A stretch of DNA of 63,278 nucleotides, the filler included, from an uncultured bacterium (GTDB lineage Bacteria > CAYJOG01): the NCBI GenBank assembly GCA_964371695.1. It is 3 parts of 3 records of this genome, joined end to end, with 100 filler letters (N's around TTAATTAATTAA, not from the genome) between each part and the next. Parts side by side here need not be neighbours in the genome. Positions count along the whole stretch, not along the records: positions 44,357 to 63,278 come from CAYJOG010000006.1; 2 more parts are not named here. One strand, 5' to 3'. Shown one piece after another: positions 22,119-62,452 of this stretch. Made by a program: the position numbers and the translations under genes. Numbering within the stretch: position 1 is the stretch's first letter; each line of letters begins with the position of its first letter. The notes beneath the pieces were generated by a model, which did no database searches, had not been told where the DNA came from, and saw nothing but the letters and a program-made list of their open reading frames with translations.

Positions 22119-22218
22119 NNNNNNNNNNNNNNNNNNNNNNNNNNNNNNNNNNNNNNNNNNNNTTAATTAATTAANNNNNNNNNNNNNNNNNNNNNNNNNN
22201 NNNNNNNNNNNNNNNNNN
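22119..22218. other. Artificial contig linker
   Basis: N44-TTAATTAATTAA-N44 carries stops in all frames. Confidence 0.97.
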
Positions 22219-41649: not shown

Positions 41650-42903
41650 TCAATGCCCCAAAAAGGCGTTGATGACCTTCATGCGGCGTTTGCCTTCTTC
41701 GCGGTTGTCCACTTCGCGCAGGCGCATGAGGGGTTTGTGCAGGAATTTTTTGGTGAGGGCGCGGGTGAGTTCGTCCACCAGTTCCTCGCCTTCGGGGCCA
41801 AGCTGCTCCACCCGGCTTTTGAACCGCTCCATCTCGCTCACCCGCACCTGTTCGTAATGCTCCAGCAGATGCTTGATGAGCGGCACGGCCTCCAGGCTGA
41901 AATACCACCGCAAAAACTGCCGCCCCTCCACACGCACAATTTCCTTCACCTGCTGAATCTCCTGCTTGCGTGACTCAAAGGTTTCCTCCACCACGCCCCG
42001 CAGGTCGTCAATATCGTAGAGATACACGTTGTCCAGACCCCCCACGCGGGGGTCCACGTCGCGCGGCACGGCGATGTCGAACAAAAACAGGGGCCGCCAG
42101 CGGCGGCGGCGCATGATGTCCTTCACCTCTTCAAACTGAAGAATGGCCTTGGGGCACGCGGTGGAGGTGATCACGATGTCCACGCTCATCAGCCCCTCGT
42201 GCAGGTTTTCAAAGGGCACGGCGCGGCCCAGCAACTGGCGGGCCAGCTTCACCGCCTTTTCGTGGGTTTTGTTGGTGACCACCACCTCGCTGATGCCCCG
42301 CTCCATGAGGTGCTGGGCGGTGAGTTCGCTCATTTTGCCCGCACCCACCAGCATCACCCGTTTGCCCTTCAGGTCGCCATACACTTTCTCGGCCAGGCGC
42401 ACCGCCATGCCCGCCACACTCACGCTGCCCTGGCCAATGGCGGTTTCGGTGCGCGCCCGTTTGCCCGCGTGCAGGGCCGTGTTGAGCAGGCGCGTGAGCA
42501 CGCCCCCCAGGGTGCCTGCTTCTTCGGCCTGCTCCTTGGCCTGCTTCACCTGACCGATGATCTGGTCTTCGCCCAGCAACATGCTGTCCAGCCCCGCCGC
42601 CACCTCGCACAGGTGAAACACGGCTTCTTCATCCTGATGGGCATAAAAATGCTCTTTGTAATCGCGGAAATGCCGGTGAAACAGCGTGTGGATGGCGTCT
42701 TCCATCAGCGTGTGCGGCTCGGTGTGGTCGGCGGCGACCAGCAGCACCTCGGTGCGGTTGCAGGTCGCGAGCAAAAGGGCTTCGTCCACGCCCTCAATCT
42801 GCCCCAGGCGGGCCAGGCCCTGGGCCGTGTCGGGCAGAGAAAACTGCTCGCGAATCGCCACGGGGGCGGTGTCGTGATTCAATCCGAAGAGGAGGAGATA
42901 CAT
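41650..42903 (-). CDS. hemA: Glutamyl-tRNA reductase
   Basis: GLNHDTAPVAIRE, TCNRTE, GLDSMLLGE.QI, VGAGKM and DIAVPRDV motifs. Confidence 0.96.
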   Translation of the reverse strand: MYLLLFGLNHDTAPVAIREQFSLPDTAQGLARLGQIEGVDEALLLATCNRTEVLLVAADHTEPHTLMEDAIHTLFHRHFRDYKEHFYAHQDEEAVFHLCEVAAGLDSMLLGEDQIIGQVKQAKEQAEEAGTLGGVLTRLLNTALHAGKRARTETAIGQGSVSVAGMAVRLAEKVYGDLKGKRVMLVGAGKMSELTAQHLMERGISEVVVTNKTHEKAVKLARQLLGRAVPFENLHEGLMSVDIVITSTACPKAILQFEEVKDIMRRRRWRPLFLFDIAVPRDVDPRVGGLDNVYLYDIDDLRGVVEETFESRKQEIQQVKEIVRVEGRQFLRWYFSLEAVPLIKHLLEHYEQVRVSEMERFKSRVEQLGPEGEELVDELTRALTKKFLHKPLMRLREVDNREEGKRRMKVINAFLGH

Positions 42904-43544
42904 TGTTCCAGCCGCCGGGTGAGGTCGCCGTGGCTCAAACCCGCCAGGGTTTGGGACGAGACACCCTCAAAAAAGCGGTGCAGTATACGCTGGCGCGTGG
43001 GGGAATCGGGAACCTCCTGTTTCAGCCGCTGCCGGGCAGCGACAAGGAACTGAACAAGACTATCGTATCCTGTTAAAAACTGTTCGTCCAATTCTTCGCG
43101 GATTTTGCGACTGAGGGCGGGCACGGTGGTGTTCACGCTGATGCTCACACCGCCGCTTTTGCTGGTGGCAGGCACAATCAGCGTGCTGGTGGCGCTGTCG
43201 TCGGCTACGTTCACCCAGGCCCCCGCCTGTGTGGCCAGCCGGGCCGCTAGTTTATTGACGAACCGGTTTGAAGAGCAGGCGAAAACAAGGCGCTGGCCGG
43301 TGAAATGGCGTTCTTCAAACCCCTCGGCCAGCCAATTCAGGCACCCCTGTTTATGAAATGACGCTATTTCGGCCTGGATTTTGGGGGACACCACAGTGAT
43401 TTCAGCGCCTGCTTCCACCAAGGCCGTGATTTTGCGGGCCGCCACACCGCCGCCCCCCACCACCAGCACCGGCACACCGGTCAGTTTCAGGGCCGCCGGA
43501 TAAAGTGCCGCTGTGTTTGTTGTGGGTGAAACCGGTGTGTCCAT
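42879..43544 (-). CDS. Precorrin-2 dehydrogenase / sirohydrochlorin ferrochelatase (CysG N-terminal / SirC-like)
   Basis: YP..L.L...VLVVGGGGVAARK, ITVVSP and VNVAD motifs; overlaps hemA. Confidence 0.9.
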   Translation of the reverse strand: MDTPVSPTTNTAALYPAALKLTGVPVLVVGGGGVAARKITALVEAGAEITVVSPKIQAEIASFHKQGCLNWLAEGFEERHFTGQRLVFACSSNRFVNKLAARLATQAGAWVNVADDSATSTLIVPATSKSGGVSISVNTTVPALSRKIREELDEQFLTGYDSLVQFLVAARQRLKQEVPDSPTRQRILHRFFEGVSSQTLAGLSHGDLTRRLEQCISSSSD

Positions 43545-43661
43545 GGCGGTCTTTTGAGGCAAAATTGACAAACGGGGTTATTCTTTAAAAAATAATGTTC
43601 AGGACGATAACCAAAGGGGTACTTTAAGCCATCAGGGAAGCACCACAAAGGGAGTTGGGTC

Positions 43662-44256: not shown

Positions 44257-44356
44257 NNNNNNNNNNNNNNNNNNNNNNNNNNNNNNNNNNNNNNNNNNNN
44301 TTAATTAATTAANNNNNNNNNNNNNNNNNNNNNNNNNNNNNNNNNNNNNNNNNNNN
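44257..44356. other. Artificial contig linker
   Basis: N44-TTAATTAATTAA-N44. Confidence 0.97.
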
Positions 44357-44474
44357 CTGCCCGCCGCCGGGTTTCTCCCCCGCACCGCCAACCGCTGGCA
44401 CGTTCAGACTTTGGCCAGTCTGCTGAGGCGGGGGGAACCCATGGGCAATTGACTCCGCGTGGTACAATCAACCC

Positions 44475-44669
44475 GTGAAGGCAAAGGCCCAAACAGCGAT
44501 TTCCATTGGCGAGTCCTCGGAGTCCCTTCATCTGAGCGCCGCCGACGTGGCCGCCATCAACGAGGGCGTGGCGGACATTTTGGCGGGACGGGTTCACCCG
44601 TGGGAAGACGTGAAAAAAGAAATGCAGCAGCGGCTGACGGATGCAAAAAAGAACCGTCCGGGTAGCTGA
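44475..44669 (+). CDS. ParD-like / addiction module antitoxin
   Basis: AINEGVADILAGRVHPWEDV motif; overlaps a ParE-like gene. Confidence 0.75.
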   Translation: MKAKAQTAISIGESSESLHLSAADVAAINEGVADILAGRVHPWEDVKKEMQQRLTDAKKNRPGS

Positions 44670-44982
44670 GCGCGCCCGGCAGGACATTGCCGCTGTCCAG
44701 TTCTATCTGCTGGCCCAGGCCGACCCGCTGAATACCGAACGGGTCACGCGATGGCTGTGGCGGTGCATTGAAGAACTCACCGTGGGGGCAGACCGTTTTC
44801 CTCTGGTTCACCGCAAAGGTGTGCCGCCGGGCATCCGTTTCGCCCGAGTCCACACCTACGACACCTCAGGCAGAAAACACGCCAAGGCCACCCGCTGGGT
44901 CGTCTTTTTCATGGTCCGGGACGACGTGGTGGAGGTAGCTCGGGTGCGCCACGCCAGCCAGCGGCCGCTTTGGGAAGAATGA
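44641..44982 (+). CDS. RelE/ParE family toxin
   Basis: V.VAERA.QDI..V..YL N-terminus and VVFFMVRDDVVEVARVRHASQ C-terminus. Confidence 0.8.
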   Translation: MQKRTVRVAERARQDIAAVQFYLLAQADPLNTERVTRWLWRCIEELTVGADRFPLVHRKGVPPGIRFARVHTYDTSGRKHAKATRWVVFFMVRDDVVEVARVRHASQRPLWEE

Positions 44983-45112
44983 TCAGCGTTTGACAACTGC
45001 GGTTTGTCCTGCTTCGCACGAAGGGTGACACCCCGCCAGGGGCGCGGGGCATGATTGCCCGCTTTTCCCATGTCTTGGGTTTTACAGGAATGGGGCCCAA
45101 GAATTTTTTGGG

Positions 45113-46174
45113 TCACGGCACGGCGGTGGCGGATTTTGGGGTGCTGTTGGGGGTGGCGGCGCGTTTTTCGTTCAGCACACCCAGCAGCCGCTGGCTGGTG
45201 ACGGAGAGGCGGTCGTCCGCCGTGGGGGTGCGGGTGGTGGTGAGCGTCAACTCCGCCAGTTTGGCGGCTTCGTCAAACCCCGCTTCCTCTCCATATAAAA
45301 ATGAAATCTGCACCGTGTTGTCCGTTTGCGCGTCCCCCTGGTCTATCACCATGCCGCTGGTTCCCGTGAGGGTTTGCAGCGTGAACCCGCTGGGCAGTTG
45401 CAGCACCAGATGCCCCGCCCCCACCGTGGCGGTGGAGGTGTCCGTGTTGCCCGAATCGGTGCGGTCGCGCCGCAGCAGCAGGCGGCTGGTATAGGTGTTT
45501 GCCGCCGAGCCGGAGACCTCCAGCTTCGCCGCCACCACGCACCATTCCTGGCCCGCCAGGCAGTCCCGCGTGGTGGTTTGTTCTCCCGTCACCAGTTGTG
45601 TAGCGGTTTGCGTCACCACCGTTTGTGTGGGGGCCGGGGCGCGGTTGTCCACAAACGCGTCGGACACTTCGTGCAGCAGATCGCTGGTCTCACCAATGCG
45701 CACCTGCTCCTCCATCGCCTCCACATCCACGTTGTCGGTGGTTTGGCCGCGCAGCGCGACCTCCACCACCGTGCTTTCCAGGCTCACGTTGCGCGTAATA
45801 GTGCCGGTGGTCTGGGTGCCCGTGACGACTAGGGCGCTGAGCTGACGGTTCTGCTGGGTGACAAGGACACGGCCCCGCACGCCTGAGCGAATGAGCAGCG
45901 TGTAACGGCCCTGGGCGTTGGTGGTGGCCTGGGCCTGGGGGGTGTTTCGGCCTTCCTCATAAAACGCTACCGTAGCCCCTGCCACCAGAGTTTCGGCGGC
46001 GGCGGCGGTGCGGGCGCTGAGCAGGTTGGTGCGCACGCTCACCACGCCTTGCAGGTTCAGCGCACCGGGGGCGCCGCCAATGGGCGGGGTGCTCATCCGT
46101 CCACCGCCGCAGCCTGACAGGGTAGCGAGGATGATGGAACCCAACAGGGTGAGCAATCGGTATTGGCGGTTCAT
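45113..46174 (-). CDS. Lipoprotein with a carboxypeptidase-regulatory-like domain and a cohesin-like C-terminal domain
   Basis: Lipobox LSGCGGG; VAGATVAFY...ATTNAQGRYTL; C-terminal beta-rich segment; ATGA overlap and AAGGAGGT SD. Confidence 0.75.
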   Translation of the reverse strand: MNRQYRLLTLLGSIILATLSGCGGGRMSTPPIGGAPGALNLQGVVSVRTNLLSARTAAAAETLVAGATVAFYEEGRNTPQAQATTNAQGRYTLLIRSGVRGRVLVTQQNRQLSALVVTGTQTTGTITRNVSLESTVVEVALRGQTTDNVDVEAMEEQVRIGETSDLLHEVSDAFVDNRAPAPTQTVVTQTATQLVTGEQTTTRDCLAGQEWCVVAAKLEVSGSAANTYTSRLLLRRDRTDSGNTDTSTATVGAGHLVLQLPSGFTLQTLTGTSGMVIDQGDAQTDNTVQISFLYGEEAGFDEAAKLAELTLTTTRTPTADDRLSVTSQRLLGVLNEKRAATPNSTPKSATAVP

Positions 46175-49100
46175 GGCGCACCTCCTTCATTGCCTTGCGC
46201 AGGCAAGGCGGCAGCCTCTCTGGCCAGGGCCGGACACCAGGGGAACTCCGCCTTGCCTCGGATGGTGCCATTGGCGCAGCGCAGGATGAGGTTGGCGTCC
46301 TCGGTGGTGATCTTGCCGTCTTTTGGCACGGCCACGTCGGCGAACAGAATCTGCGCCGACGTGGGGGCGCCCTTGCCGGTGGCAAACTTGTTGGCCAACA
46401 GCGCGTCGGCCTTGTCAATGTCGCCGTCACTGTCCATGTCGCCGCCCACGCTGATCACCTGAATGCCGTCGCTGCTGGCCACGGTGCTCAGTTGACCCAG
46501 GGCGTCGCTGGCCCGCACGTTCAGGTAATAGGTGTTGCCATAGGTCAGGCTGAGGCCCGTGGCGGTGGCGGTGATGGCCGTGCCAGCGCTGGTCCAGGTT
46601 TTTATGCTGGTGTCGCCCGCGCTGGTGCCGATGCTGTAGCTGTATTCGGCAATGCCGCTTACTGCGTCGCTAAAGCCTGTCCAGGTTGCGGTGAGCTGGG
46701 TTTTGCTGCTGGTGCTGGTTCCCTCGTCGCTCACCGTGCCGGTGACGGGGGCGGCGGTGTCCACGGTGATGCCGTCAGTGCTGGCCACGGTGCTGGTGTT
46801 GGCGGCGGCATCCTTGGCTCTGATGTTGATGAAATAAGCGCTGCCGTTGGCCAGCGAAAGCCCCGTGGCGATGAGGCTGGCGGCCAGGGGGGCCGTGGAG
46901 ACCACCCGCGCCGCGCCTGCCACGGTGGTCCAGTCGCGCACGCTGGCGCCCCCCGCGCTCGTGCCAATGCTGTATTCATACTGCGTGATCTCGGTGTTGT
47001 CGCTAAAGCCGGTCCAGGAGGCGTTCAGCGTGGTGGTGTTGCTCGTGAACTGGCCGTCGTCGGTGATGGTGCCGGGCGTGGGAGCGGTGGCGTCGGCGAT
47101 GTAAATGATGCCGTCGGTGCTGATCACGGTGCTGGTGTTGTTCACGTTGTCCACGGCGCGGATGTTGACGTAATAGGTGACGGTGCGGTCGGTGAGGTTC
47201 AGGCCTGTGGCGGTGACGGTGGTGCTGGTTCCCGCGCTGATCCAGTCGCGCACGCTGGCGTCACCGGCGCTCGTGCCGATGCTGTAGTCGTAACGGGCGA
47301 TGCCGCTCAGCGCATCGGCGAAGCCAGTCCAACTGGCCACAAGTTGCGTGCCGTTGTTGGTGCTGGTTCCCTCGTCGCTCACCGTGCCGGTGGTGGGGGA
47401 GGCGGTGTCCACGGTGATGCCGTCGGTGCTGGCGGCGGTGCTCACGTTGTTGGCTGCGTCCTTGGCTCTGACGTTGAAAAAATACTGCGCGGCGCTTGTG
47501 AGGTTCAGGCCCGTGGCGCTCACGCTGGTGGACGGAACAGCAATGGAAGCGGCCCGCGCTGCGGCGGGCACGGTGGTCCAGTCACGCACCGTGGTGCCCC
47601 CCGCGCTGGTGCCGATGCTGTATTCGTACTGGATGATGGCGGTGTTGTCGCTAAAGCCGGTCCACGAGGCGCTGAGCGTGGTGGTGCTGGCGGTGAACTG
47701 GCCGTCGTCGGTGACGGTGCCCGCCGTGGGGACTGCGGCGTCGGCCACATAGGTGACGCCTCCCGTGCTGGCCACGGTGCTGGTGTTGCCCGCGTTGTCC
47801 ACGGCGCGCACATTGATGAAATATTGTGTGCCGTCGGTGAGGTTCAGGCCTGCGGCGGTGACGGTGGTGGCCGCGCCGTTGTCGGTCCAGTCCCGCACCG
47901 TGGCGCCCCCCGCTGTGATGCCGATGCTGTAGTCGTAGCGGGCGATGCCGCTCAGTGCGTCGCTAAAACCGGCGATGGTGGCGGTGAGTTGTGTGCTGCT
48001 ATTGGTGGTGGCTCCCGCGTTGCTCACCGTGCCGGTGACGGGGGCCGTGGTGTCCACCGTGATGCCGTCGGTGCTGGCCACGGCACCGAGGTTACCAACG
48101 TTGTCCTTGGCGCGGATGTTGAAAAAATATTGTGTGGCGCTGGTGAGGCTCAGGCCCGTGGCGCTCACGTTGGTGTTCGTGGCCACGCTGGTCCAGTCAC
48201 GCACCGTGGTGCCCCCCGCGCTGGTGCCGATGCTGTAGCTGTATTCGGCCAAGCCGCTGGTGGCGTCGCTAAAGCCTGTCCATGAGGCGCTCAGTGTGGT
48301 GGTGCTGCTGGTGTGTGTGCCGTCATCGCTGGCCGTGCCCGTCGTGGGGGCTGTGGTATCTATGGTGATGCCGTTGCTGTTCACCACCGAAGACCAGTTT
48401 CCCGCGTCATCCCTGGCCTGCAAGTAGACCACGATGGTTTTGCCATCGCCGGGGTCAAAAAATGCCTCGTTGATAGAGGTGTTGTTGGTGGTGGTGGACG
48501 CCACCAGAGCATTGACGCCATCATCGGCGAGATAGGCGCTGTAGCTGTAGCCGGTCACCCCCACGGTGTCGGTGAAGCCATACCACGAGGCGCTGATGCT
48601 GTCGTTGTTGGTCTGAAACTGGCCGTTGTCCGCCACCGTTCCGCCAGTGGGGGCGGTTTCATCGATGTTATACATCCAAAAATCACTGCCTCCGGTCAAC
48701 GCATAAAACTTGTGGTTGGCGACCCGCACCAGCGCCGAACCCCCACTAACCGTGACAGGTGTGCCTGTCAGGGTAGCCCAACTGTTTTGGGCGATGTCAT
48801 AACGATAAAAATTGTTGGTGAAACCACCTTTAAAGGCATAAATATAGTTGCCGCCGTCATGCACTATCGCGCCGCCAGCCCCAATGGCATTGGGTGTGGC
48901 AGCCATCGTGGTCCAACTGTTGCCACTGATGCTGTAACGCAAAAAAACCGTTGATCCCCCTTGAAGGGCATATAAAAAATCGTTCCCCGTGGAAACAAGT
49001 TTTCCGCCATCTACCAAGAGTCCGGGAGCATTGGCAAGAGCCGTCCAGTTATCGTTGGCGATGCTGTAACACCAGAGGGTATCTGTCGTATTCCCCCGCA

Positions 49101-49560
49101 GGACATAGAGACAATCCCCGCTGCCGGGGAAAGCCATGCCGCCACCATAGGCTATTGTGGCGGGGGCGTTCGCCAGAGTGGTCCAACTGTTACCACTGAT
49201 GCTGTAGCGCTGCAGGCCGGTGTTGAGGTTGCCCTGCAGGGAATAAAGGTAATCTCCGCTCCCCAGGTAAACCAGGGAGCCGCCCGCGTTGACACCGCCG
49301 CCATGTGAGGGCACGGGCGTCAAGGCTGCCCAAGTGTTGTTGCTGATGCTGTAACGCACAAAACCCACTTGGCCGTTGCCCTCTTGGCTATAGATATAAT
49401 CACCTGACAAGGGATAGGCCAAATCGGCTCCGTTGTAGTTGGAGAGTGGAAGGCTTGCTTTGCTGGACCAACCCGCCTGTGCGTTGCCTGCACTCAGCAA
49501 CCACACCAACCCAACCAGGACCAACGAGAGCCCTTTGTAGAACAAAAAGTGTTTTTTCAT
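46171..49560 (-). CDS. Secreted protein: 6-blade Kelch propeller, 7 FN3/Ig-like repeats, C-terminal dockerin
   Basis: Signal peptide AQA; six RYSI..NSW..L..P blades; seven DT.AP..GTV.D...SW.GFSD..YSIGT...VRA.D repeats; GDMDSDGDIDKADA...ADV...DGKITTEDA. Confidence 0.88.
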   Translation of the reverse strand: MKKHFLFYKGLSLVLVGLVWLLSAGNAQAGWSSKASLPLSNYNGADLAYPLSGDYIYSQEGNGQVGFVRYSISNNTWAALTPVPSHGGGVNAGGSLVYLGSGDYLYSLQGNLNTGLQRYSISGNSWTTLANAPATIAYGGGMAFPGSGDCLYVLRGNTTDTLWCYSIANDNWTALANAPGLLVDGGKLVSTGNDFLYALQGGSTVFLRYSISGNSWTTMAATPNAIGAGGAIVHDGGNYIYAFKGGFTNNFYRYDIAQNSWATLTGTPVTVSGGSALVRVANHKFYALTGGSDFWMYNIDETAPTGGTVADNGQFQTNNDSISASWYGFTDTVGVTGYSYSAYLADDGVNALVASTTTNNTSINEAFFDPGDGKTIVVYLQARDDAGNWSSVVNSNGITIDTTAPTTGTASDDGTHTSSTTTLSASWTGFSDATSGLAEYSYSIGTSAGGTTVRDWTSVATNTNVSATGLSLTSATQYFFNIRAKDNVGNLGAVASTDGITVDTTAPVTGTVSNAGATTNSSTQLTATIAGFSDALSGIARYDYSIGITAGGATVRDWTDNGAATTVTAAGLNLTDGTQYFINVRAVDNAGNTSTVASTGGVTYVADAAVPTAGTVTDDGQFTASTTTLSASWTGFSDNTAIIQYEYSIGTSAGGTTVRDWTTVPAAARAASIAVPSTSVSATGLNLTSAAQYFFNVRAKDAANNVSTAASTDGITVDTASPTTGTVSDEGTSTNNGTQLVASWTGFADALSGIARYDYSIGTSAGDASVRDWISAGTSTTVTATGLNLTDRTVTYYVNIRAVDNVNNTSTVISTDGIIYIADATAPTPGTITDDGQFTSNTTTLNASWTGFSDNTEITQYEYSIGTSAGGASVRDWTTVAGAARVVSTAPLAASLIATGLSLANGSAYFINIRAKDAAANTSTVASTDGITVDTAAPVTGTVSDEGTSTSSKTQLTATWTGFSDAVSGIAEYSYSIGTSAGDTSIKTWTSAGTAITATATGLSLTYGNTYYLNVRASDALGQLSTVASSDGIQVISVGGDMDSDGDIDKADALLANKFATGKGAPTSAQILFADVAVPKDGKITTEDANLILRCANGTIRGKAEFPWCPALAREAAALPAQGNEGGAP

Positions 49561-49770
49561 TTTTTGGTTGTCCTTTAAAAAGGGTGTTTTTGAAAAGTAG
49601 CCAGGAAAGGCAGGAAAGGGATAACCAAGGGGCTGCCAACTTCTGGGCGGGCACCTTCTTTAAGAGCGGGAAGGCGCTGTGTGCCAGAATCGGCCGGATT
49701 ATGACTACTTTGTTCTGGTTTTTTCAATTTCTTGGGCAAAAAACCCGTGCTCACCCAAAAAATGTTCCGA

Positions 49771-50170
49771 TCAAGGTTCATTCGTATCAGTCCGGTACAA
49801 ATTTCGGGAGGCGAGCAGCTTGAAGCCGCGTGAGGGAGAAAGCCGGGAGGCTGACGCCATCACGAAGGCTTGGTTACTGATGGCTGACCCTGATTTTTTC
49901 AACGCGAAATAGATTCTGGCCAAGCTACCGTATGACTGGATGGTCCATCCGGGGAGGAAAGCGAAGTTGTTCCTGGCAGCGTCTGTCAGGCCGGTTGGCA
50001 AACCTTTTGTTACCCAAGCTTTTCAATTTGTCTTCGAGCATCTGAATCTGGACACGAAGGGTGGCGTTCTCCAGACGAAGATCGGTAGAGGACTTGAGAC
50101 CGGACCTGAAGGCTGCGGCCAGCCCCGGCAAACCGCCGATCAGGCCCCAAAGGGTGTTGAAGGCCATCAT
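49771..50170 (-). pseudogene. Probable frameshifted small gene
   Basis: ORFs 49925-50170 and 49771-50001 join if one A is removed from the AAAA run near 50005. Confidence 0.35.
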
Positions 50171-50936
50171 GAAACCTCCCAGGGGTCAGAAAAAACTTGT
50201 AACACGATTTTAGACGGGTTGGCGGATACGCAGGTCCAAAAGCGCCCAAGATGTTCTCTGGAAGTGAATAAGTGGGATCGCAAAAGGGGTAAAAACAGCT
50301 GGTAGCAGGGCACCTGCCCGGCAGGGGTGAATTTAAAAAACACCAGCAAAACAGCCTTGGATATATTTATTGGGGAGCTTGGAAGGGCACCTGGACGGCC
50401 CAAATCGAGGGGCTACCCCCGGATGGCCCGGCCATCCTCAGCCCACCCCAGCGAACAGCGGCTTAGTCGCCAAAAGACGAGGCCAAAATGACCCTTTTTC
50501 AGGCTCCAGTCTCAGAGACCGTTTTGTAATGATATTTGTTCCCTCCACCCCACCGGCACCCGCAAGGGTCTCACGCACCGGGGAGCTAAAGCTCCCCGGA
50601 TTGCGTTGCAGCCCCACCGGGAAAAATAAACCCGCAAAAACCGCCTGTTTTTGAAGGGTCTTTTGTGGCCAGCCGCCGAAACGCCATTCCCCCAGAGGAC
50701 TGCCGCTGGCGACCACCCCGGAGAAAACTGCGCTGTTTTGTCTCAGTCTGGCCCCCGTCTCAGCAGTGTAGAGGTCAACGCGTTCCGTAGTCCTCTACAA
50801 AACCCCTGATTTGAAGGGGGTAAATTTTTTGAGTTTCGATTCCTCATGCCTATTTGGGTTGAACCGAGTGGGGGTCGAAATGTCTATTCCGGCATCTATT
50901 TCGGACGTGTTGGAGCGTCGTTGATGTTTTAATAGA

Positions 50937-53900
50937 TTATGCTTCGGGCTGATGTTCGGATCGGATAAGTTCAGCTTCCCTTTCGTAGGCAGAAGCTAAG
51001 TTGCGCAACGTAAGGGCAAGTCGCTGAAAACCGGCGTTTTCTACCTCTTCGGCTTTAAGAGCATAACCTGAAGCTAATTCTTTTTCAGGTTCGCCTGTTG
51101 GGTCGACCTGATGAACGCCACGTGAATTGTATAGTCCTGTTCTAAAACCATCCCGAAGGGGATCAGCATCGCGATGATTCAATGCTGCTGCGACAGCGCG
51201 GTGAATCCATAAGCCAGTTGGATCTGAGGGGGCATGAATCAAAACTTCGCCTATATTGGCGAGTGCAACTTCCAAGTGGCCGGACTCCAGACATGCATCC
51301 TTTACTATTTGAAGCCATTCAGTGAATCTCTTTTCGCAGAAGGTTCCATCGTTTTGCGTGCTAGGCGGTATTGTCCACTCATGGAGAAGCCTCCAGGCGT
51401 TTTTTGCGATTGCTTTTGATTCTTCAGTGGGTTCTTTTGACGGTTTGTCTTCCTTCTTGGATCGGTAGATCAGTCGAATCACCTCACAAAAGAAGTTGGG
51501 GTCATTAGCCAGCCTGTTTTCTAGGAGTCTGGGTGCTGCACCGCCAGGACTGTAAAGCAAGGGAACATATGCCCACTCCACTCTAAAAAGGTCATCCTGG
51601 TTTACGGAAGGCTCTGTCTGGAGAAACTTGATCAGTTCGACAATATGGTGCCCGTCCATTGCGTAGCTAGGCTCACTGGAAGAAAGTGCTTTGAGTAGTG
51701 CTCGAACGCATTGACTGGTGTCGATTGCTTGCTTGGTCCGGCGCATTCTGTACAAGCAGTTGATCGCAGCGTGGGGTCTGTCATGTTCCATGAGTTTCTC
51801 AATGGCAATGGGAAGATCGCCTTCGGTTTGATAAACATTTGCGCTGGCGTGAGTCCAATATTCATCCTCATGCATTTGAAGCCAGTCAGAAACGCGATTC
51901 CATGTTTCCTTGGAAAAAGGCAAACAAGTCAGAAACTGTCCGGCTTGCGTGGGAGTCCAATTGGATTTATCGATACTGTCGCACCACTCCCAACCTAAGA
52001 TGTGGTGGCGCTTACAAATAAAGCCGTTTGCTAACGCCTTAAGCTTTTTATTTGGTGTATCCAAGAAGCGAGGCAGAAGGTCCAGTTCAATTGATGGGTC
52101 ATTTATGATTCCAAGTGCGTTCCCTACTTGGCTGGATGAATAAACAGCTTCAGAAAATCGAATGACGCCTTTGATGCCACTTTGCTGAAATATTTCCGAT
52201 ATGGCTTTTTCACGTCGTGTGTCGATTTTCTTTCGCTGCTCCTCCCAGTCGCCGTTCTCGTCGTAGAGATGAGAATCGCTAAATTCAAAGAGGTGCTGAT
52301 ATAGATTGAATGGATTTGTTGGGGTGAGCTGTTTGGCAACTTGCTCGATACGGGTGATCAGTTCATCAGATAATGCCCATTGGGCATCGGAAAATCGGCG
52401 GTGTTGGTGTGTTAATTTCGTGAGGTGTTCCCAAAGTGAAAGTCGTTGCTCTTCAGGAAGTTCTGAAATGGTTTGGGAGGCAAGGACTTCAATAAGTTGA
52501 TCAAAGGCAGGTCTGGGCAGATGGTCAAAATGGTCAATCAGCACGGAGAGTCGGTCAGCGTCAGTGCCTGCGGTAGCCACCGCAAGCTCCCCATATATAG
52601 ATACCTGTTGCCAGTATTCCTGAGAGGTTACGCTTTCTTCCCGACCGTCGGGGATTGTCTTTCGCCAGCTTGGCTTGTGCGAGCCGGTAGAGATTCTGTG
52701 TTGATCAGGTAGAAGCTGGATGATCAGATTCCAGGCAATTTCCGGTCTTTCATTTAGGAGCGTCTGCACAGCCACCTTGCGCTTATCTACAGATGCCAGT
52801 GTTTGCGGAAACCAGGGGAGTAGTATGGTCGCAAGCGAATTGGATGGACGATTGGCCAACCGGCCACCAGGGTCATGGCTGGCGAGTTCGCCAAGCACAA
52901 CACAGACCCGAACCAGAAATTGCTCATCCCAAGCCAGGCCTTCTAAAGCCCACAATAGGCCGGTCAGATAATTACCTCCGGTGAAGCCATCGCCTTCTTG
53001 GGAAAAAAGTTCATCAAATGGGCAGGGCGTCAGGTGCAATGCATCCTCGACGGCATTGAGAAATTCGTCGGGTGCGGCTTCAGCCAGAGTGGGAAGTAGA
53101 CCATTCAGGCTACCCCATAAAACCCAGTCAGAACCGGTCAGGAGTTGGCGTATCACTCGCGCAGAGGTTGATTCAGCTTTCCCAAGCGAGCAGTTGCTGC
53201 ATCCATCGGGAAGGCTGCCCAAAATGGCTAAACCCTCGGCGATTCCTTCTCGCAGCATGTGTGATCTCTTCAGAACCTTGCCATGAATGCTCGCCGCGTA
53301 ACGCTCGTCGACGGGCAGTTCAAAAGCGGGGTCTGGCTCTTGCAATATGGAAACAGCCAACGATCTAAAAGTGTCGAGATTTTGATCAAGAATACGTGAT
53401 CCCAGCAGATCCCAAAGCTCCGTTCGATTGTTAACTTTCCAGACGCCATTTTTTAGGGACAACGGGCTGTCAGAGTAGTGCAATATGTCCCGTGCCTTCG
53501 TTAGCCACTCGTCGTAACTTATGCCGAGCAATTGAGTTATCGACTCAAGGTCGCACTCGCTTTTTTCGTTCCAGCTTCCAATAAGAATTGCCAAAGCAAG
53601 GTAGGTTGCGTCTGAGTGCTGGCTCCAATCGGTTTTAGGACTATTGGGTATGGCCTTAAATTCCTTAGGCATCTCTGTCACGGCCTTTTGCTTAAAGGCT
53701 TCCAGAATGTCGTCTGGCAGTTTTCCGGGTGTTATTGTTCCTGCATCCTGATTCCAAGTTTGTACGATATCGACAATTCGTGACCAAGCCCACTGTGGAT
53801 GATGTTGCTGAAATTGGGAAATGTGGGAATGCAAGAGAGACAAGACAACGCCGAAATCGTTACCCAGGTCGTAACCGAGGAGATGGAAGTGTTTTAGGAA

Positions 53901-54473
53901 GTCATAGAGCTTGTCCTTTGGAACATCAATCCCGCCGTTTGCCTCTTTTAGGCGGTGCTGAATGACTTCAAGTTTCTTGGCGCTTTGAGGTGGGCTGAAC
54001 TTTTCCTGATAGACTCTTCTGAAAAACTCGTCGACGTTTTTTGTGTGCCTCGCTTGGTTCAACAACCACTGTGCGTTGTGTGCATCGGTTGCGTTAATTG
54101 GCCCTGTAATCAGCGCGATAACATCCTTATTCCTTGTGAACACTGCACAGTTATTGAAATCGTTCCAAGCGGCCTGCATGACCTCCCCGAACAGGGAGCT
54201 ACCCTGTGTGATGGGAATGGAATGCTTGACCTGTCCGAGAAGTTTTCGCCGCTCCTTGCTGATTGTGTCTTCTACAAAAACAACGAGGTCATCAGTTTCA
54301 AAACCATCAATCTTGCCCTGAAGTTTGATTTCGACAATTGGCCAGCAGGGAAGACAGGGGGCATGTCCGCCGGAAAGCATCAACGTAACAAATGATGCCT
54401 GGACATGCGCTTCAAAATGAAAACCACCACCGCCTGTGGAAAAGGGGTTGCTGAGATTTTTGCTTTTGCTCAT
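50937..54473 (-). CDS. 1178-aa defence-island protein with a putative N-terminal PD-(D/E)XK nuclease and a long helical region
   Basis: STGGGG..FE...TDDLVV...LLGQVKH resembles a D..QxK nuclease; no Walker A seen; AT-richer than host genes. Confidence 0.7.
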   Translation of the reverse strand: MSKSKNLSNPFSTGGGGFHFEAHVQASFVTLMLSGGHAPCLPCWPIVEIKLQGKIDGFETDDLVVFVEDTISKERRKLLGQVKHSIPITQGSSLFGEVMQAAWNDFNNCAVFTRNKDVIALITGPINATDAHNAQWLLNQARHTKNVDEFFRRVYQEKFSPPQSAKKLEVIQHRLKEANGGIDVPKDKLYDFLKHFHLLGYDLGNDFGVVLSLLHSHISQFQQHHPQWAWSRIVDIVQTWNQDAGTITPGKLPDDILEAFKQKAVTEMPKEFKAIPNSPKTDWSQHSDATYLALAILIGSWNEKSECDLESITQLLGISYDEWLTKARDILHYSDSPLSLKNGVWKVNNRTELWDLLGSRILDQNLDTFRSLAVSILQEPDPAFELPVDERYAASIHGKVLKRSHMLREGIAEGLAILGSLPDGCSNCSLGKAESTSARVIRQLLTGSDWVLWGSLNGLLPTLAEAAPDEFLNAVEDALHLTPCPFDELFSQEGDGFTGGNYLTGLLWALEGLAWDEQFLVRVCVVLGELASHDPGGRLANRPSNSLATILLPWFPQTLASVDKRKVAVQTLLNERPEIAWNLIIQLLPDQHRISTGSHKPSWRKTIPDGREESVTSQEYWQQVSIYGELAVATAGTDADRLSVLIDHFDHLPRPAFDQLIEVLASQTISELPEEQRLSLWEHLTKLTHQHRRFSDAQWALSDELITRIEQVAKQLTPTNPFNLYQHLFEFSDSHLYDENGDWEEQRKKIDTRREKAISEIFQQSGIKGVIRFSEAVYSSSQVGNALGIINDPSIELDLLPRFLDTPNKKLKALANGFICKRHHILGWEWCDSIDKSNWTPTQAGQFLTCLPFSKETWNRVSDWLQMHEDEYWTHASANVYQTEGDLPIAIEKLMEHDRPHAAINCLYRMRRTKQAIDTSQCVRALLKALSSSEPSYAMDGHHIVELIKFLQTEPSVNQDDLFRVEWAYVPLLYSPGGAAPRLLENRLANDPNFFCEVIRLIYRSKKEDKPSKEPTEESKAIAKNAWRLLHEWTIPPSTQNDGTFCEKRFTEWLQIVKDACLESGHLEVALANIGEVLIHAPSDPTGLWIHRAVAAALNHRDADPLRDGFRTGLYNSRGVHQVDPTGEPEKELASGYALKAEEVENAGFQRLALTLRNLASAYEREAELIRSEHQPEA

Positions 54474-54615
54474 TTGTCGATGTCCCGTGCGGTGTTTTTC
54501 TCACTCCAGGTTTTGTGGCAAAGGTTGGTGAGCTTGTGGTGGAAGGGATGATGCCTATATGGGAATTGACGATACTTGTCAAAGTTTTGATGCTTGTTGA
54601 GTCCTCCAAATCGTT

Positions 54616-55344
54616 TTATTTCCATGCCTGCTCCAGGCGGCGTTTCCGCTCCTCCCAGTCTGGCATGATCTGGCGAAGGAGGGTGAAAAACTGAGCGTTG
54701 TGGTCCCGGTGAATCAGGTGGCACAACTCGTGGGTGATGACGTACTCGATGCAAGGTTTTGGGGTTTGGATCAGGTTGGTGTTCAGCATCATCCGGCCCC
54801 CTTGGGAGAGGCTTCCCCAGCGGCTTCTCATCTCCCGGATGAGGATGGGGGGGCTGGCAAACCCCTTGCGGCCAAAGGGGAGGATGCAAGATTCCAGGAC
54901 TTCGGGAAAGATCGTCTTGGCCCGGTCCAGATACCATTTTCGAAGGATGGTTCTCACGCGGTCGGGTGGTAGCGCGGTTGGGCCAGCTACCACCAGTTCT
55001 CCTCTGGTGAGGATGACCCGGTCCTTGGGGGTGTCCGGCGCGATGCCCCGGACCCGCAAACGGTACTGTCTGCCGAGGTAACGGTGCGATTCTCCGCTGA
55101 CGTAAAGGCGAGGGGTTTCCCTTTCTTCATATTGAGCAAATCCCGTGCGTTGGCGGCTGATCCACTTTGCCCGTGACTGAAGTTTTTCCATGATGAGGGT
55201 CTCGCTACTGTCCGGGGGGACCAGCACCAGCACCTGACCATCGGGGTGTACCTCAATGCCAAGGGTGCGCCGCCGGGGGCGTTCTTCCACCTCAAAGGGG
55301 ATAGTCTCCCCACCGTATTGGATCTGCCCACTGCTCAGCATCAC
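54616..55344 (-). CDS. M48/SprT-like (YgjP/DUF45) zinc metallopeptidase
   Basis: RWGS and IEYVITHELCHL..H..F motifs; usual position after hsdR. Confidence 0.92.
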   Translation of the reverse strand: MMLSSGQIQYGGETIPFEVEERPRRRTLGIEVHPDGQVLVLVPPDSSETLIMEKLQSRAKWISRQRTGFAQYEERETPRLYVSGESHRYLGRQYRLRVRGIAPDTPKDRVILTRGELVVAGPTALPPDRVRTILRKWYLDRAKTIFPEVLESCILPFGRKGFASPPILIREMRSRWGSLSQGGRMMLNTNLIQTPKPCIEYVITHELCHLIHRDHNAQFFTLLRQIMPDWEERKRRLEQAWK

Positions 55345-58300
55345 ACCACCATCCTGTGCCGGGCCAGCTCCATGGTCTTTTCCAGGATGTGGTCCTTGTT
55401 CTCGTTGCTCAGGGGAATCCCCGCCTGCCCCTCGATCTGGTCATAAAGGTAATCGTCAATATCGTTGTGGGTCAGGCGCTGGGCATCCAGGTCATCCCAA
55501 AAGCCCACTTTTTTGTTGCGCTGGATGATGCCCAGGATGTCCAAGGCCGCTTTGACGGTGATGGCCGAGGCAGCCTCTTCATCGGCATGACCCATGAAGA
55601 AGGGTTTCAGCACGCCATAGAACGCCGCGCCGTCGTCGTTGCCTTGCAGGCTGGGGGGCACGTCCTTGGTGCGCCGGTTCACCACCGCGTCCCGGATGTC
55701 CTTGACAGTGTTCAGGTAGTCCAAATCCGACAGGCGCTTGGCCCGGTAATTGTCGATGGCCTGTTGGATCATGGTTGAGAACTTGGTGTAGAAGGCGGGG
55801 TCTTGCTCCAGGCGTTCGTGAATGGCCTTTTTGGTGGCGTGGGCGATGGTGTCGGCCTGGGCGGCCAAGGGTTTGCCGTGGCCCTGTTCGGCCAACACTT
55901 CCTGAAAGGCGTTTTCGTCGAAGATGTTCACCGGGTCGGTCAATTGCATCACTTCACTGGCCGAGAGGTGGGTGTCCAGCAGCTTTTTGATCTTCGGTTC
56001 GTAGTCCCGGTAGTCGATGGTTTCCGCGTAGCGGAGCTTTACGGCTACCCGTAGGTTGGAAAATCGTTTCAAATCATTTTTATACCCTTCCACCTTCTTC
56101 TCCGGGGTGGATGTGATGAACTGCTCACTGGACAGCGCCAGATGCAAGGTTTTTCCAAAGGCGGTCAGGCGGTCGTAAAACTCGTTGCGGATTTTCTCGT
56201 CGCCTAGCAACTGTTCATAGGCTTCCTCGTCGCGCTGGTTCTTGATTTCCTTGAAGATGTCCCACAGGTCGGCGTGGCGTTGGGGCAGCTTGGCCACTTC
56301 TTCGTTCAGACTGATGAGCGCCCCGGCGATGTCCTGTTCGTCGTAGCCTTCCAGTTCGCTGTAGGTGGTCAACGCCTTGTCCAGTTCTCCAAGGATTCCT
56401 TCGTAGTCCAGGATGTAGCCCCATTCCTTTGGCTTCTTGCCTTCGTCGTCGTCATACAGGCGGTTCACGCGGGCGATGGCCTGCAGCAGCGTGTGTTCAC
56501 GCAAAGTGCGGGTGAGGTACAACACGGTATTCCGGGGGGCATCGAAGCCGGTGAGCAGCTTGTCCACCACAATGAGAATTTCCGGGTCCTCCCCGTGTTT
56601 GAACTGGTTGATGACCTGTTTGTTGTATTCCTCTTCGCTGCCGTAGCGCTTCATCATCTTGGCCCAAAAGGCCACCACGGCATCGGTGGATTCATCTTCG
56701 TCGGTTTCTTCGTAACCCTCCCGTGCGTCGGGGGGTGAGATGACCACTTCACAACTCACGTGGCCGATCTCATCCAGCACTTTTTTGTATTGCAGGGCTG
56801 AAGTTTTGTTGGGGGCCACCAGTTGGGCCTTGAAGCCCGTGCCCTTCCAGTTCTGGCGAAAGTGCTCGCTGATGTCGAATGCCCGCATGTAGATGACCTG
56901 ATCGGCCTTGCCCAACATGCCTGCCCGGCTGTATTTCTTTTTCAGGTCGGCTTTTTGTTCGCCGGTGAGGCCCTCGGTGTGGCGCTCGAACCAGGTGTCG
57001 ATGCCGGTTTTGTTCTGGGTGATCTCCACGTGACGGCCTTCGTACAGCAGCGGCACCACGGCGCCGTCCTTCACCGCCTGATTGATGGCATAGGTGTCTA
57101 TGAGCCCGCCGAACTTCTCGAAGTTGTTCCGCTCTTTTTTGCTCAGCGGCGTGCCGGTGAAGCCCAGGTAGCAGGCCATGGGGAACATCTGGCGCATGCG
57201 GGCGGCGAAGCTGCCGAAGTTGGTGCGGTGGCTTTCGTCCACCAGCACGAACACATCGGCGCTGTCTTCGGCGTGTTTTTTGTGAGAGAGCGCTTTGTCG
57301 AACTTGTTGATGAGGGTGGTGATGAGGTGGGCTTTGTCTTCGGCCACCAGTTTCAGCAGGTGCCTGCCGCTGTCGGCGCGTTCAGGGGTGAGGCCGCAGG
57401 CGGCGAAGGTGCTGCCCAGTTGTTTGTCCAGGTCCACCCGGTCGGTGACCAGCACGATGCGGGGGTTGCGGATGTCCGGGTCCAACGCCAGGGCGCGGGC
57501 CAGCATCACCATGGTGAGGGACTTGCCGGACCCCTGCGTGTGCCACACCATGCCCCCGGCGCGGCGGCCTGTGGCGTCGCGCTTTTTCACGCGGTTCACA
57601 ATGCGCTTCACAGCAAAGAACTGCTGGTAGCGTGCAATCTTGCGCAGTCCGCCGTCGAACACGGTGAATTGCAGCGCCATGTCCAGCAAGCGTTCGGGGC
57701 GGCACAGGCTGTGCAGGGTCACATCCTGGCCGGTGACCTGCCGGGGGCCGCTGGCTTCCAGGTCCTCGAAAAACTTTCGTGCTTTGACGAATTCCTCACC
57801 GGAAAAAAGGTGGTCTTTCACCACCGGGGTCAAGGATTGGTTCACCAGCGGTGTCAGGGCGGTGGGGTTGTCCGTCTGTTCGTGCCAGACGGACCAGAAG
57901 CGGGCTGCTGTCCCGGTGGTGGCATATTTGGCGTCGTTTTTGTTCACCGCCAGCACCATCTGGGCATAGGTGAACAGCTTGGGGATGTACTCGTCCCGCT
58001 GGTTGCGGATGGTTTGGGACACGGCCTGATCCACTTCCACTTTGGGCGATTTGCATTCGATGACCACAAACGGAATGCCGTTAACGAACAGCACAATGTC
58101 AGGCCTGGCTGTTTCGTGGCTGCGGGTGCGCTCCACGGGCAATTCGGCGGTGACATGAAAACTGTTGTTGGCGGGGGTTTTCCAGTCGATGTAATTCAGC
58201 GTGAAGCTACGGTTGTCGCCTTCAATATTTTGTTCCAGGGCGATGCCCAGCGTCAGCAGGTCATAAACGGCTTCATTGGTTTTCAGCAGGCCGTCATACT

Positions 58301-62219: not shown

Positions 62220-62452
62220 ATGCTGGGTTCCTTGGGAGAAAGACCGAAATCCGCTCCCCCTTGAACTATTGCAAAATTTGCAACAGTTCGGCTTCTAAAC
62301 CGTTCTTCGCACCCCACCAAGAAGAAGGTGTCCCGGTAGTGCCGGGTGAGGTTGTGCTTACCGTCTGCGTCAGTTGTCCGGAAATTCCGGACAACTGGGG
62401 CTTGACTCAACTCGCTACCCAAGGCGGGTTTCTCGCTTTTCTTGCCGCTCAT
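62216..62452 (-). pseudogene. Short ORF made of RhuM-like fragments
   Basis: EL....VVRNFRTT.ADGK....HY and TVANFAIVQ both resemble the RhuM N-terminal segment; coupled to hsdM and rhuM. Confidence 0.6.

Follow-up and report, generated by a model that had tools for sequence, protein, structure and literature searches.

Gene organization of the locus

The window, meaning the whole stretch of DNA that was analysed (63,278 nucleotides), consists of three contigs joined by N spacers, and the gene pair described here lies wholly in its third part (44357-63278, contig C6 of genome G000). Both genes are on the minus strand. Gene 1 (46171..49560, -) was called as an ORF and translated, and encodes P0001, a protein of 1129 aa whose translation and Pfam domains describe a secreted propeller-stalk-dockerin protein. 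Gene 2 (45113..46174, -), also an ORF call, encodes P0002, a protein of 353 aa described by its family alignment and predicted model as a lipoprotein with a C-terminal cohesin-fold domain.

The original prediction that the two genes are translationally coupled through an ATGA overlap (46171..46174, -) was borne out at the DNA level. Both ORFs were found, the ATG of gene 2 at 46174-46172 overlaps the TGA of gene 1 at 46173-46171, and the same overlap is repeated in a paralogous pair on contig C120. The junction reads ...AAT GAA GGA GGT GCG CCA TGA, and the strong Shine-Dalgarno sequence of gene 2, GAAGGAGGT (46180..46188, -), lies within gene 1, 5 nt 5' of the ATG; it is part of the last gene 1 codons, which also serve gene 2 for ribosome binding. 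The C-terminal Pro of P0001 is invariant in all five related dockerin tails, as is expected from a conserved CCA-TGA/ATG junction. A scan for promoters and terminators, with counts not above those of shuffled sequences, placed a promoter-like site at 49727-49698 (-), 138 nt 5' of gene 1, and none between the two genes.

The host genome is 83% complete and is the sole genome of its phylum within the genome collection used. The locus stretch is present in 4 DNA runs from one study of a sediment metagenome, and no RNA runs are listed with it. Omp85 is present, indicating a diderm, so that for display at the cell surface both proteins would have to pass through the outer membrane or be lodged in it. 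The genome also contains Lgt (205 bits) and four secretin-family matches, which together with Omp85 mean that lipoprotein maturation and a route across the outer membrane exist in principle.

The secreted propeller-stalk protein

P0001 begins with a Sec signal peptide (residues 1-29, 49474..49560, -) ending in NAQA, read from the translation. It is followed by a Kelch-type beta-propeller at about residues 30-299 (48664..49473, -), where Kelch families of Pfam exceeded their cut-offs: Kelch_6 with 47.7 bits (cut-off 25.3), Kelch_4 with 30.6 (21.6), Kelch_1 with 25.1 (20.1) and Kelch_3 with 24.6 (22). The stalk (residues 300-1036, 46453..48663, -), delimited by repeat boundaries and Pfam, is composed of seven repeats of 101-111 aa each. 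Ig_Rha78A_N gave the best Pfam match to these repeats (45.7 bits), Ig_J_second reached 31.7 bits and fn3 was weak at 17.3 bits, and the repeats are therefore better named FN3/Ig-like. The earlier description of a secreted Kelch propeller on a seven-repeat FN3 stalk thus stands as to signal peptide, propeller and repeats, and needs correction as to the FN3 name. The number of repeats may not be fixed, judging from P0016, the same gene in another assembly, which is identical from about residue 440 on and carries a different repeat upstream.

The Pfam scan of P0001 returned no glycoside hydrolase domain, in agreement with the view that no such enzyme is involved. No recognised outer-membrane translocation domain was found in the domain scan of P0001 either, leaving the Sec signal peptide alone.

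The dockerin-like tail

The C-terminal region of P0001 contains a dockerin-like module (residues 1040-1100, 46261..46443, -), assigned from Dockerin_1, profile matches, Foldseek and the predicted interface. A dockerin has a pair of EF-hand-like Ca loops in tandem, each of the form D-x-[DN]-x-[DN]-G-x-[IV]-x-x-x-D and each followed by a helix. In P0001 the order is a canonical Ca loop 1 with its helix, a linker, and a degenerate loop 2 followed by the invariant helix TTEDANLILRCA. Loop 1 reads D1041-x-D-x-D-G-x-I-D-x-x-D1052. Loop 2 (A-V/E-P-K-D-G-K-I-T-T-E-D) keeps D-G-K-I-T-T-E-D and has A, V (or E), P and K at positions 1-4; positions 1 and 3 carry no acidic or amide residue, so that two ligand positions are missing, and the nearest upstream Asp is shifted by two residues. 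The proposed duplicated Ca-loop/helix motif accordingly holds for loop 1 and for both helices, which are predicted in the model, and is degenerate in loop 2.

In the protein scan, Dockerin_1 (PF00404, Pfam gathering threshold 22.9 bits) matched residues 1040-1092 over profile positions 2-52 of 57 with 22.5 bits and an E-value of 1.3e-4, just under the threshold; in a six-frame search of the genome the same tail scored 27.7 bits, above it. A profile built from five tails picked up 27 proteins at E <= 0.001; PF00404 is present in 18 of them, the nearest of these at E 2e-29. The tail is, by these profile comparisons, homologous to recognised dockerins, as the original prediction had proposed. Searching PDB sequences with the tail gave dockerin modules in the top 17 rows, with weak E-values of 0.005-0.4. 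When folded alone, the tail was modelled with low confidence (pLDDT 56.5) and with both helices. Foldseek ranks 1-28 for this model were all dockerin chains, none at E <= 0.001, mostly with a TM to target of 0.6-0.8 and an rmsd of 2-3 A over about 63 residues. Within the predicted complex described below, pLDDT of the tail rises to 79-80.

After the module comes a C-terminal extension (residues 1101-1129, 46174..46260, -), recognised from conservation and the DNA, which includes a PWC motif with Cys1109. C1095, P1107, W1108, C1109, G1126 and P1129 are invariant in five of five tail sequences. Since both cysteines are invariant, a disulfide clasp between Cys1095 and Cys1109 is probable.

The lipoprotein and its three-domain model

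P0002 starts with a lipoprotein signal peptide (46109..46174, -) and the lipobox L19-S-G-C22 after a hydrophobic stretch, called from the alignment and the presence of Lgt. The lipobox motif is [LVI][ASTVI][GAS]C, and all 12 family members share G21, C22 and G23. By its lipobox, and with Lgt in the host, P0002 is classed as a bacterial lipoprotein. It matched no Pfam or NCBIfam family.

The AlphaFold2 model of P0002 (pLDDT 78.3, pTM 0.71) has three domains. The N-terminal beta-sandwich (residues 38-127, 45794..46063, -) resembles transthyretin and CarboxypepD_reg domains in the model and in a VIA structural scan, with Z of 7.7 (3e8v), 7.1 (1qmu) and 6.9 (5aq0), a range in which perhaps only a common arrangement is shared. 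A helical middle domain (residues 132-204, 45563..45781, -; pLDDT mostly 84-94) leads to the third domain, the predicted dockerin socket (residues 207-336, 45167..45556, -), assigned from VIA, Foldseek and the complex prediction, with pLDDT of 80-91 over most of its length.

In the model, residues 207-336 adopt a cohesin jelly-roll fold. The unbiased VIA scan of 48,161 PDB chains placed cohesins at ranks 1-16 for this domain, with Z from 12.2 down to 8.4 and 108-119 of about 130 residues aligned; the top match, 2vo8, had Z 12.2 and rmsd 2.8 A over 116 aligned residues. CBM2 and YcnI-like sandwiches came next at Z 8.2-7.8, which leaves a margin of up to 4 Z units between the cohesins and the nearest non-cohesin folds. 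Foldseek re-alignment gave cohesins at ranks 1-30. The cohesin-like strand pattern originally noted at about residues 215-342 coincides with this sandwich, and the possibility that the C-terminus lacks a cohesin jelly-roll finds no support in the model.

Searches for a sequence-level link came back empty. Pfam Cohesin (PF00963) had no match at E <= 1 in P0002, or anywhere in the 83%-complete genome; hhalign of the 12-sequence family profile against the PF00963-bearing P0035 gave no link (probability 0.1); and a PDB sequence search with the family profile returned nothing meaningful. An Atlas feature search yielded leads to cohesin clusters at 0.78 and 0.76 only, both below 0.9. Given the negative Cohesin HMM and hhalign results, the cohesin assignment rests on the fold predicted from a 12-sequence alignment.

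Predicted complex of lipoprotein and tail

The whole mature lipoprotein was modelled with the dockerin tail and 2 Ca, alongside 3 controls. The ipSAE was 0.83, 0.82 and 0.82 over the runs and 0.07 for the best of the controls, with a partner pLDDT no lower than 79; between runs, 98% or more of the contacts agreed. In the calibration of the tool, run without riding ligands or user alignments, the same mark was attained by 116 of the 157 solved complexes and by 2 of the 215 mismatched pairs. As many cohesin-dockerin complexes have been solved, the score may in part be a memory of them.

Both dockerin helices were predicted on one sheet of the cohesin-fold domain and not on the other two lipoprotein domains, which is the placement that the original prediction called for. 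The predicted interface in P0002 comprises residues 252-255, 276-281, 289-293, 295, 297, 329 and 331-335. Cohesins bind dockerins via the strand 8-3-6-5 face, and the contact stretches 252-255, 276-281, 289-297 and 329-335 would correspond to strands 3, 5, 6 and 8 under our strand numbering of the model. In a permutation test, conservation at the predicted interface did not significantly exceed that of the remaining domain residues (p 0.21 with 6 sequences, 0.16 with 12). Modelling supports cohesin-dockerin binding between P0001 and P0002 through this interface.

Paralogous pair, other dockerins and relatives

Exactly two places in the genome match the dockerin tail and two match the lipoprotein. 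A lipoprotein copy directly follows each tail, and the 4-nt overlap is identical in the two pairs, one on contig C6 and the other on C120; the whole gene pair is duplicated as a unit within the genome. The paralogous tail on C120 gave no Dockerin_1 match at E <= 0.1.

The count of dockerin and cohesin genes suggested earlier gave six further Dockerin_1 proteins, five at 27.5-40.6 bits and one at 20.9, and zero Pfam cohesins in this 83%-complete genome. These six canonical dockerins are of another subtype, with GDANGDGKIDLKDLG repeats at the extreme C-terminus and without the Cys tail. ORFs beside the canonical dockerins had been considered cohesin-like from their strand pattern and were rejected: for the L007 ORF, hhalign probability was 0.3 and Pfam found nothing.

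Related tails occur on propellers other than Kelch, namely FG-GAP/VCBS (P0017, P0018) and BNR/sortilin-like (P0019). Contigs of equal size carry tail proteins and lipoprotein homologues (42653 for P0005, P0017 and P0019; 12046 for P0004 and P0018), and the genes for tail and lipoprotein may be adjacent in these other organisms too. Searches for related loci found none in genome contigs or metagenome contigs with the 6-sequence alignment, and none in genome contigs with P0008 alone. Profile searches of 60 and then 400 other genomes found no full-length member of the lipoprotein family, with partial N-terminal matches in 2 genomes each time.

Interpretation and alternative explanations

The gene anatomy, coupling signals and pair duplication described above, together with the relation of the tail to dockerins and the cohesin fold modelled for the lipoprotein, are probably best explained by a dedicated, co-translated cohesin-dockerin cassette in which the lipoprotein tethers the propeller-stalk protein by its dockerin tail. 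The gene 2 product would be anchored by its lipid, and from Cys22 a flexible tether would lead to the transthyretin-like sandwich, then to the helical domain and, at the C-terminus, to the cohesin-fold domain. Gene 1 would provide a long secreted protein with the Kelch propeller at its far end, the seven FN3/Ig-like repeats as a stalk and the dockerin at the C-terminus. Both dockerin helices would dock onto a single sheet of the cohesin-fold domain, so that the lipoprotein ties the stalk to the membrane and the propeller points away as a ligand-binding head. The membrane would presumably be the outer membrane and the site its outer face, making this a surface display system; the propeller may act as an adhesin, and the pairing of P0001 with P0002 may require Ca.

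The predicted binding could be real and yet periplasmic or transient, the lipoprotein serving as an assembly, export or retention factor and not as a surface anchor. In a diderm such as this host, a gene 1 product with a Sec signal peptide and without a recognised translocation domain fits that reading, nothing in the analysis puts the lipoprotein on the outer leaflet, and tight translational coupling is also typical of chaperone-client pairs. It is nevertheless considered unlikely: surface fibrillar adhesins usually have a stalk with the binding head opposite the anchor, which is the build seen here, known single-cohesin anchor proteins act at the cell surface, and the four secretin-family genes offer a possible export route. 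Alternatively, the likeness may end at the fold. The lipoprotein sandwich would then be a jelly-roll of a general kind, such as a module that binds carbohydrate or metal, the tail a Ca-binding stabiliser, and the coupling a sign of some other shared role. The missing sequence signal for Cohesin, the CBM2 and YcnI sandwiches at Z 7.8-8.2 and the lack of conserved-residue enrichment at the predicted interface are consistent with this; moreover, to our knowledge no partner is known for most of the dockerin proteins found in organisms that do not produce cellulosomes, and the genome itself encodes six other dockerin proteins but no cohesin that Pfam recognises. Against these points stand the VIA ranking, with cohesins at ranks 1-16 and up to 4 Z above other folds, the complex score, at 0.82 where the best control reached 0.07 and with the cohesin-fold domain picked out of three, and the strict 2:2 match between tails and lipoproteins across the genome, which make a merely fold-level likeness distinctly improbable.

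A different partnership is conceivable as well, in which the lipoprotein cohesin is a general socket that anchors the six canonical-dockerin proteins, either in addition to the gene 1 product or in its place. No cohesin-fold candidates other than P0002 and its paralogue have so far come to light in a genome with six further Dockerin_1 proteins (five at 27.5-40.6 bits, one at 20.9) and no Pfam cohesin. The different subtype of those dockerins, with their GDANGDGKIDLKDLG repeats and no Cys tail, and the one-to-one pairing of tail type and lipoprotein by adjacency make such a socket very improbable.

Relation to known systems

Cohesin-dockerin pairs that work outside cellulosomes have been described before. 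The best fold matches (Z 12.2, 11.3 and 10.8) come from such pairs on glycosidases and toxins of Clostridium perfringens (2vo8, 2jh2/2o4e, 2w1n; NagJ-NagH complex 2ozn). In those pairs, as predicted here, two secreted proteins that belong to no cellulosome are linked through a single cohesin and a single dockerin. The Clostridium perfringens modules are carried by large glycoside hydrolases in a monoderm host and are recognised by Pfam, whereas here the predicted cohesin is on a small diderm lipoprotein and escapes the Cohesin HMM, the cargo lacks a catalytic domain and translational coupling links the two genes. The single-cohesin anchors OlpA, OlpC and SdbA of Clostridium thermocellum (3ul4, 4dh2, 2b59) match in fold with Z 9.6 (3ul4) and 8.9 (4dh2), and share with the proposed system the use of a small cell-bound one-cohesin protein to keep a dockerin protein at the envelope. 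OlpA, OlpC and SdbA are anchored to the Gram-positive wall by SLH repeats and serve the cellulosome; here the anchor would be an N-terminal lipid and the partner the propeller-stalk protein of the same operon. The non-cellulosomal cohesin 2xdh of Archaeoglobus fulgidus (Z 10.5-10.7 to the model) likewise belongs to an organism without a cellulosome.

A 2009 census by Peer et al. reportedly surveyed cohesin- and dockerin-like modules outside cellulosomes on the basis of sequence-detectable modules, and is said to have concluded that the pairs serve purposes other than cellulose breakdown. Such a census would have missed the present cohesin. Predicted cohesin/dockerin adhesin complexes have been described in ANME archaea and their syntrophic sulfate-reducing partners (PMC10553843), and a cellulosome-like system has been proposed in Cloacimonadota (PMC8542988). 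According to these two reports, the organisms are, as here, uncultured inhabitants of sediment or anoxic water, some of them diderm bacteria, and the cohesin/dockerin proteins carry Ig/FN3 domains with a proposed role in adhesion and not in cellulose digestion. Both describe systems found by domain annotation and report no lipoprotein socket or coupled one-to-one cassette; the pairing there is a predicted one, as it is here (PMC10553843, PMC8542988).

Implications for cohesin-dockerin anchoring

What appears to be new, on the strength of the models, is a lipid-anchored, sequence-cryptic predicted cohesin in one-to-one translationally coupled cassettes of a diderm. Dockerin-like modules are common in genomes without a recognisable cohesin, and their partners are mostly unnamed. 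Here a candidate partner can be named from gene coupling, pair duplication and the predicted fold and complex, even though sequence models miss it. Tentatively, and at somewhat less than even likelihood, the arrangement may be general, with sequence-unrecognised cohesins on small diderm lipoproteins in one-to-one translationally coupled cassettes, where the same tail is combined with interchangeable heads (Kelch, FG-GAP, BNR) on FN3-like stalks. If that is true, anchoring by cohesin-dockerin pairs is far more common than HMM censuses show, and for many 'orphan' dockerins of uncultured phyla a hidden partner may lie next door.

Confirmation of the binding would supply a recipe for finding hidden cohesins, namely a lipoprotein just 3' of a dockerin gene. 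It would also establish lipid-anchored cohesin-dockerin display in a diderm, from a phylum with a single genome in the collection used, and would add to the protein-assembly toolbox an orthogonal pair, probably with two paralogous pairs per cell.

Organization of the gene pair

The two genes lie on the minus strand within the third of the joined contigs (contig C6 of the source genome), which occupy positions 1-22118, 22219-44256 and 44357-63278 with N spacers at 22119-22218 and 44257-44356. The first (46171-49560) encodes P0001, a propeller protein of 1129 aa, and the second (45113-46174) encodes P0002, a lipoprotein of 353 aa. Since the window joins three contigs of a 672-contig bin, hemA and a siroheme-synthase-like gene (41650-43571) are not neighbours of the pair. 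At the junction, AAT GAA GGA GGT GCG CCA TGA, the TGA of P0001 is overlapped by the ATG of P0002, and a Shine-Dalgarno sequence, GAAGGAGGT, is found 5 nt 5' of this ATG, within the stretch that encodes the ...NEGGAP terminus of P0001. The C-terminal ...EGGAP of P0001 is thus specified by the same DNA as the Shine-Dalgarno and start codon of P0002 (46174-46188); conservation of this end, with its terminal Pro invariant in 5/5 relatives, may represent a coupling signal rather than protein function. A promoter scan gave a single promoter-like site, located 138 nt 5' of P0001, with none between the genes; these counts are not above chance.

The propeller protein and its dockerin-like tail

P0001 starts with a Sec-type signal peptide, as read from its translation, followed by Kelch repeats that exceed the Pfam thresholds (Kelch_6, 47.7 bits). 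Residues 300-1036 comprise seven repeats of 101-111 aa each, matching Ig-like/FN3-like families of Pfam (Ig_Rha78A_N, 45.7 bits; fn3 only 17.3). P0016, the same protein in another assembly, agrees with P0001 at every position of the last ~690 residues (from about residue 440) and has a different repeat upstream, opposite the first repeats of P0001 (window about 48240-48663); the repeat number of P0001 may therefore be variable, or mis-assembled by repeat collapse.

The C-terminal tail resembles a dockerin. Dockerin_1 matched residues 1040-1092 with 22.5 bits in the protein scan, just short of the 22.9 cut-off, and with 27.7 bits in a six-frame genome search. The first Ca loop is canonical, while the second retains its C-terminal half only. 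Searching with a profile built from five related tails (A4) recovered 27 proteins at E <= 0.001; 6 were the tail family itself and 18 of the other 21 are annotated with PF00404. Against PDB sequences, the best 17 rows for the tail profile were dockerin modules, with weak E-values of 0.005-0.4. Modelled alone, the tail gave a loop-helix, linker, loop-helix pattern at low confidence (pLDDT 56.5), and Foldseek with this model returned dockerins at all ranks 1-28, none at E <= 0.001. The dockerin is followed by a conserved extension, in which Cys1095, Pro-Trp-Cys1109 and the terminal Pro are invariant; we infer a disulfide clasp here.

The lipoprotein and its predicted cohesin-fold domain

P0002 carries the lipobox LSGC (Cys22), and G21-C22-G23 are invariant in 12/12 family members. 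The family is tiny: a search of 5.8 billion proteins gave 6 clusters, P0002's own included, and one of 1.84 billion gave 10 representatives at E <= 0.001. An AlphaFold2 model built on a 12-sequence alignment (pLDDT 78.3, pTM 0.71) divides P0002 into a disordered tether (residues 1-34), a first beta-sandwich (38-127), a helical domain (132-204) and a second beta-sandwich (211-331).

The original prediction of a cohesin-like C-terminus agrees with the modelled fold. When the model was scanned against 48,161 PDB representatives, independently of Foldseek, cohesins took all of ranks 1-16, with residues 207-336 as the aligned region. The best match was 2vo8 (Z 12.2, rmsd 2.8 A, 116 residues), with 2w1n (Z 10.8), 2xdh (Z 10.5) and 1ohz (Z 9.4) among the others; the first non-cohesin appeared at Z 8.3, and just 19 chains had Z >= 8. 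Cohesins also filled ranks 1-30 of the re-aligned Foldseek list. By sequence, no Pfam or NCBIfam family matched P0002, PF00963 (Cohesin) gave no match at E <= 1, hhalign of the family against the PF00963-bearing protein P0035 gave a probability of 0.1, and an Atlas feature search with P0002 led to cohesins only at 0.78 and 0.76. There is thus no apparent sequence-level link between the putative cohesin domain and cohesins.

For the N-terminal sandwich, the likeness is to transthyretin/carboxypeptidase-regulatory-like domains, with a Z of about 7, a range that may mean a common arrangement only. Residues 39-197 (window about 45584-46060) align with the non-heme domain of PgcA (9i0d; Z 8.5, 122 residues), and this likeness of the modelled sandwich and helical domain may point to a lipoprotein 'stem' module common to both.

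Predicted complex and its interpretation

Complex prediction was performed with mature P0002 (36-340; alignment A2), the P0001 tail (1033-1129; alignment A3) and two Ca ions. The ipSAE values were 0.83, 0.82 and 0.82 versus 0.07 for the best control, with partner pLDDT of at least 79 and contact agreement between runs of at least 98%. The calibration mark was reached by 116/157 solved complexes versus 2/215 mismatched pairs, counts that apply only roughly here because alignments were user-supplied and ligands rode along. Because many cohesin-dockerin complexes are solved, the score may also reflect in part that the predictor has learned them. The dockerin was placed on the cohesin-fold domain and not on the other two domains of P0002, with helices 1050-1063 and 1085-1100 contacting P0002 residues 252-255, 276-281, 289-297 and 329-335. 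In the model, these stretches can be read as strands 3, 5, 6 and 8. The sheet of strands 3, 5, 6 and 8 is the dockerin-binding face of cohesins.

These data suggest that P0001 and P0002 probably constitute a dedicated, translationally coupled cohesin-dockerin cassette. The lipoprotein would be the socket and membrane anchor, the propeller-stalk protein would be the plug-in cargo, and translational coupling would hold the two in step. The predicted interface includes the family-invariant G252, G254, G332 and L334; its conservation is not significantly higher than that of the rest of the cohesin-fold domain (p 0.21 and 0.16), and we leave a slim chance that the likeness to cohesins is one of fold only, without binding. 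Because a long stalk would set the head at the far end from the anchor, we infer a surface location and an adhesin role for the propeller. Omp85, Lgt and four secretin-family proteins are encoded in the genome, so the organism is considered a diderm with lipoprotein maturation; a periplasmic or chaperone-like pairing is unlikely, if conceivable.

Six other proteins of the genome, on contigs C28, C33, C173, C1 and C56, carry at their C-terminus a canonical tandem dockerin, GDANGDGKIDLKDLG, of a subtype different from the P0001 tail; one lies inside the window (about 12731-12880, plus strand). No Pfam cohesin was found in this 83%-complete bin, so these dockerins are orphans. It is highly improbable that P0002 is a general socket for them. 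In all but one of the six proteins (L007), the dockerin is preceded by a common Cys-containing module, ...VxKNIPxGFxR...F.C...CEL...

Distribution and known systems

The genome has exactly two places matching the dockerin tail and two matching the lipoprotein. The second pair, on contig C120, consists of a Kelch-repeat-tail gene with the same 4-nt overlap with its lipoprotein gene. Outside this genome, related tails are found on FG-GAP/VCBS propellers (P0017, P0018) and a BNR/sortilin-like propeller (P0019). These occur on one contig each, with sizes equal to those of the lipoprotein-homologue contigs (42653 and 12046), which suggests shared contigs without implying adjacency. Searches of genome and metagenome contigs found no loci related to the pair, and a search of 400 other genomes did not find the full-length lipoprotein family. 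A phylum-level search returned the source genome alone, all 400 'relatives' being related at domain level only; among the genomes examined, it seems to be the only one from its phylum. The stretch with the pair is present in four DNA runs from one sediment-metagenome study, and no RNA run is listed for it.

Cohesin-dockerin pairs outside cellulosomes are already established for C. perfringens and A. fulgidus, whose cohesins are the PDB entries heading the P0002 fold lists. Peer et al. 2009 is said to be a census of cohesin/dockerin modules outside cellulosomes. For ANME-associated sulfate reducers (PMC10553843) and Cloacimonadota (PMC8542988), such pairs have also been predicted to act as adhesins. 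The principle is already known; a cohesin-dockerin literature search of limited scope found neither a natural lipoprotein cohesin nor a Kelch cargo. New would be a cohesin missed by sequence models and its predicted lipid anchor in a diderm, together with a duplicated one-to-one cassette that is translationally coupled and in which the propeller heads are swappable.

Flanking genes

Just downstream of the P0002 gene, at the contig start, is a ParE-family toxin ORF (44641-44982, plus strand; 37.6 bits), and the contig end may have removed its antitoxin partner. On the upstream side, the pair is immediately flanked by two overlapping ORFs of 1178 and 155 aa (50937-54937, minus strand). Neither has a Pfam match at E <= 0.001, and both lie in a lower-GC stretch (0.49-0.51) that separates the pair from a restriction system. 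This system belongs to a defence island (54470-63276, minus strand) upstream of the pair; it is a type I restriction-modification system comprising HsdR (55341-58553), HsdS (59968-61188) and N6_Mtase (62449-63276), all on the minus strand. A Shedu SduA_C gene (58553-59968) and a RhuM-family gene (61185-62219), on the same strand, are inserted between its subunits.
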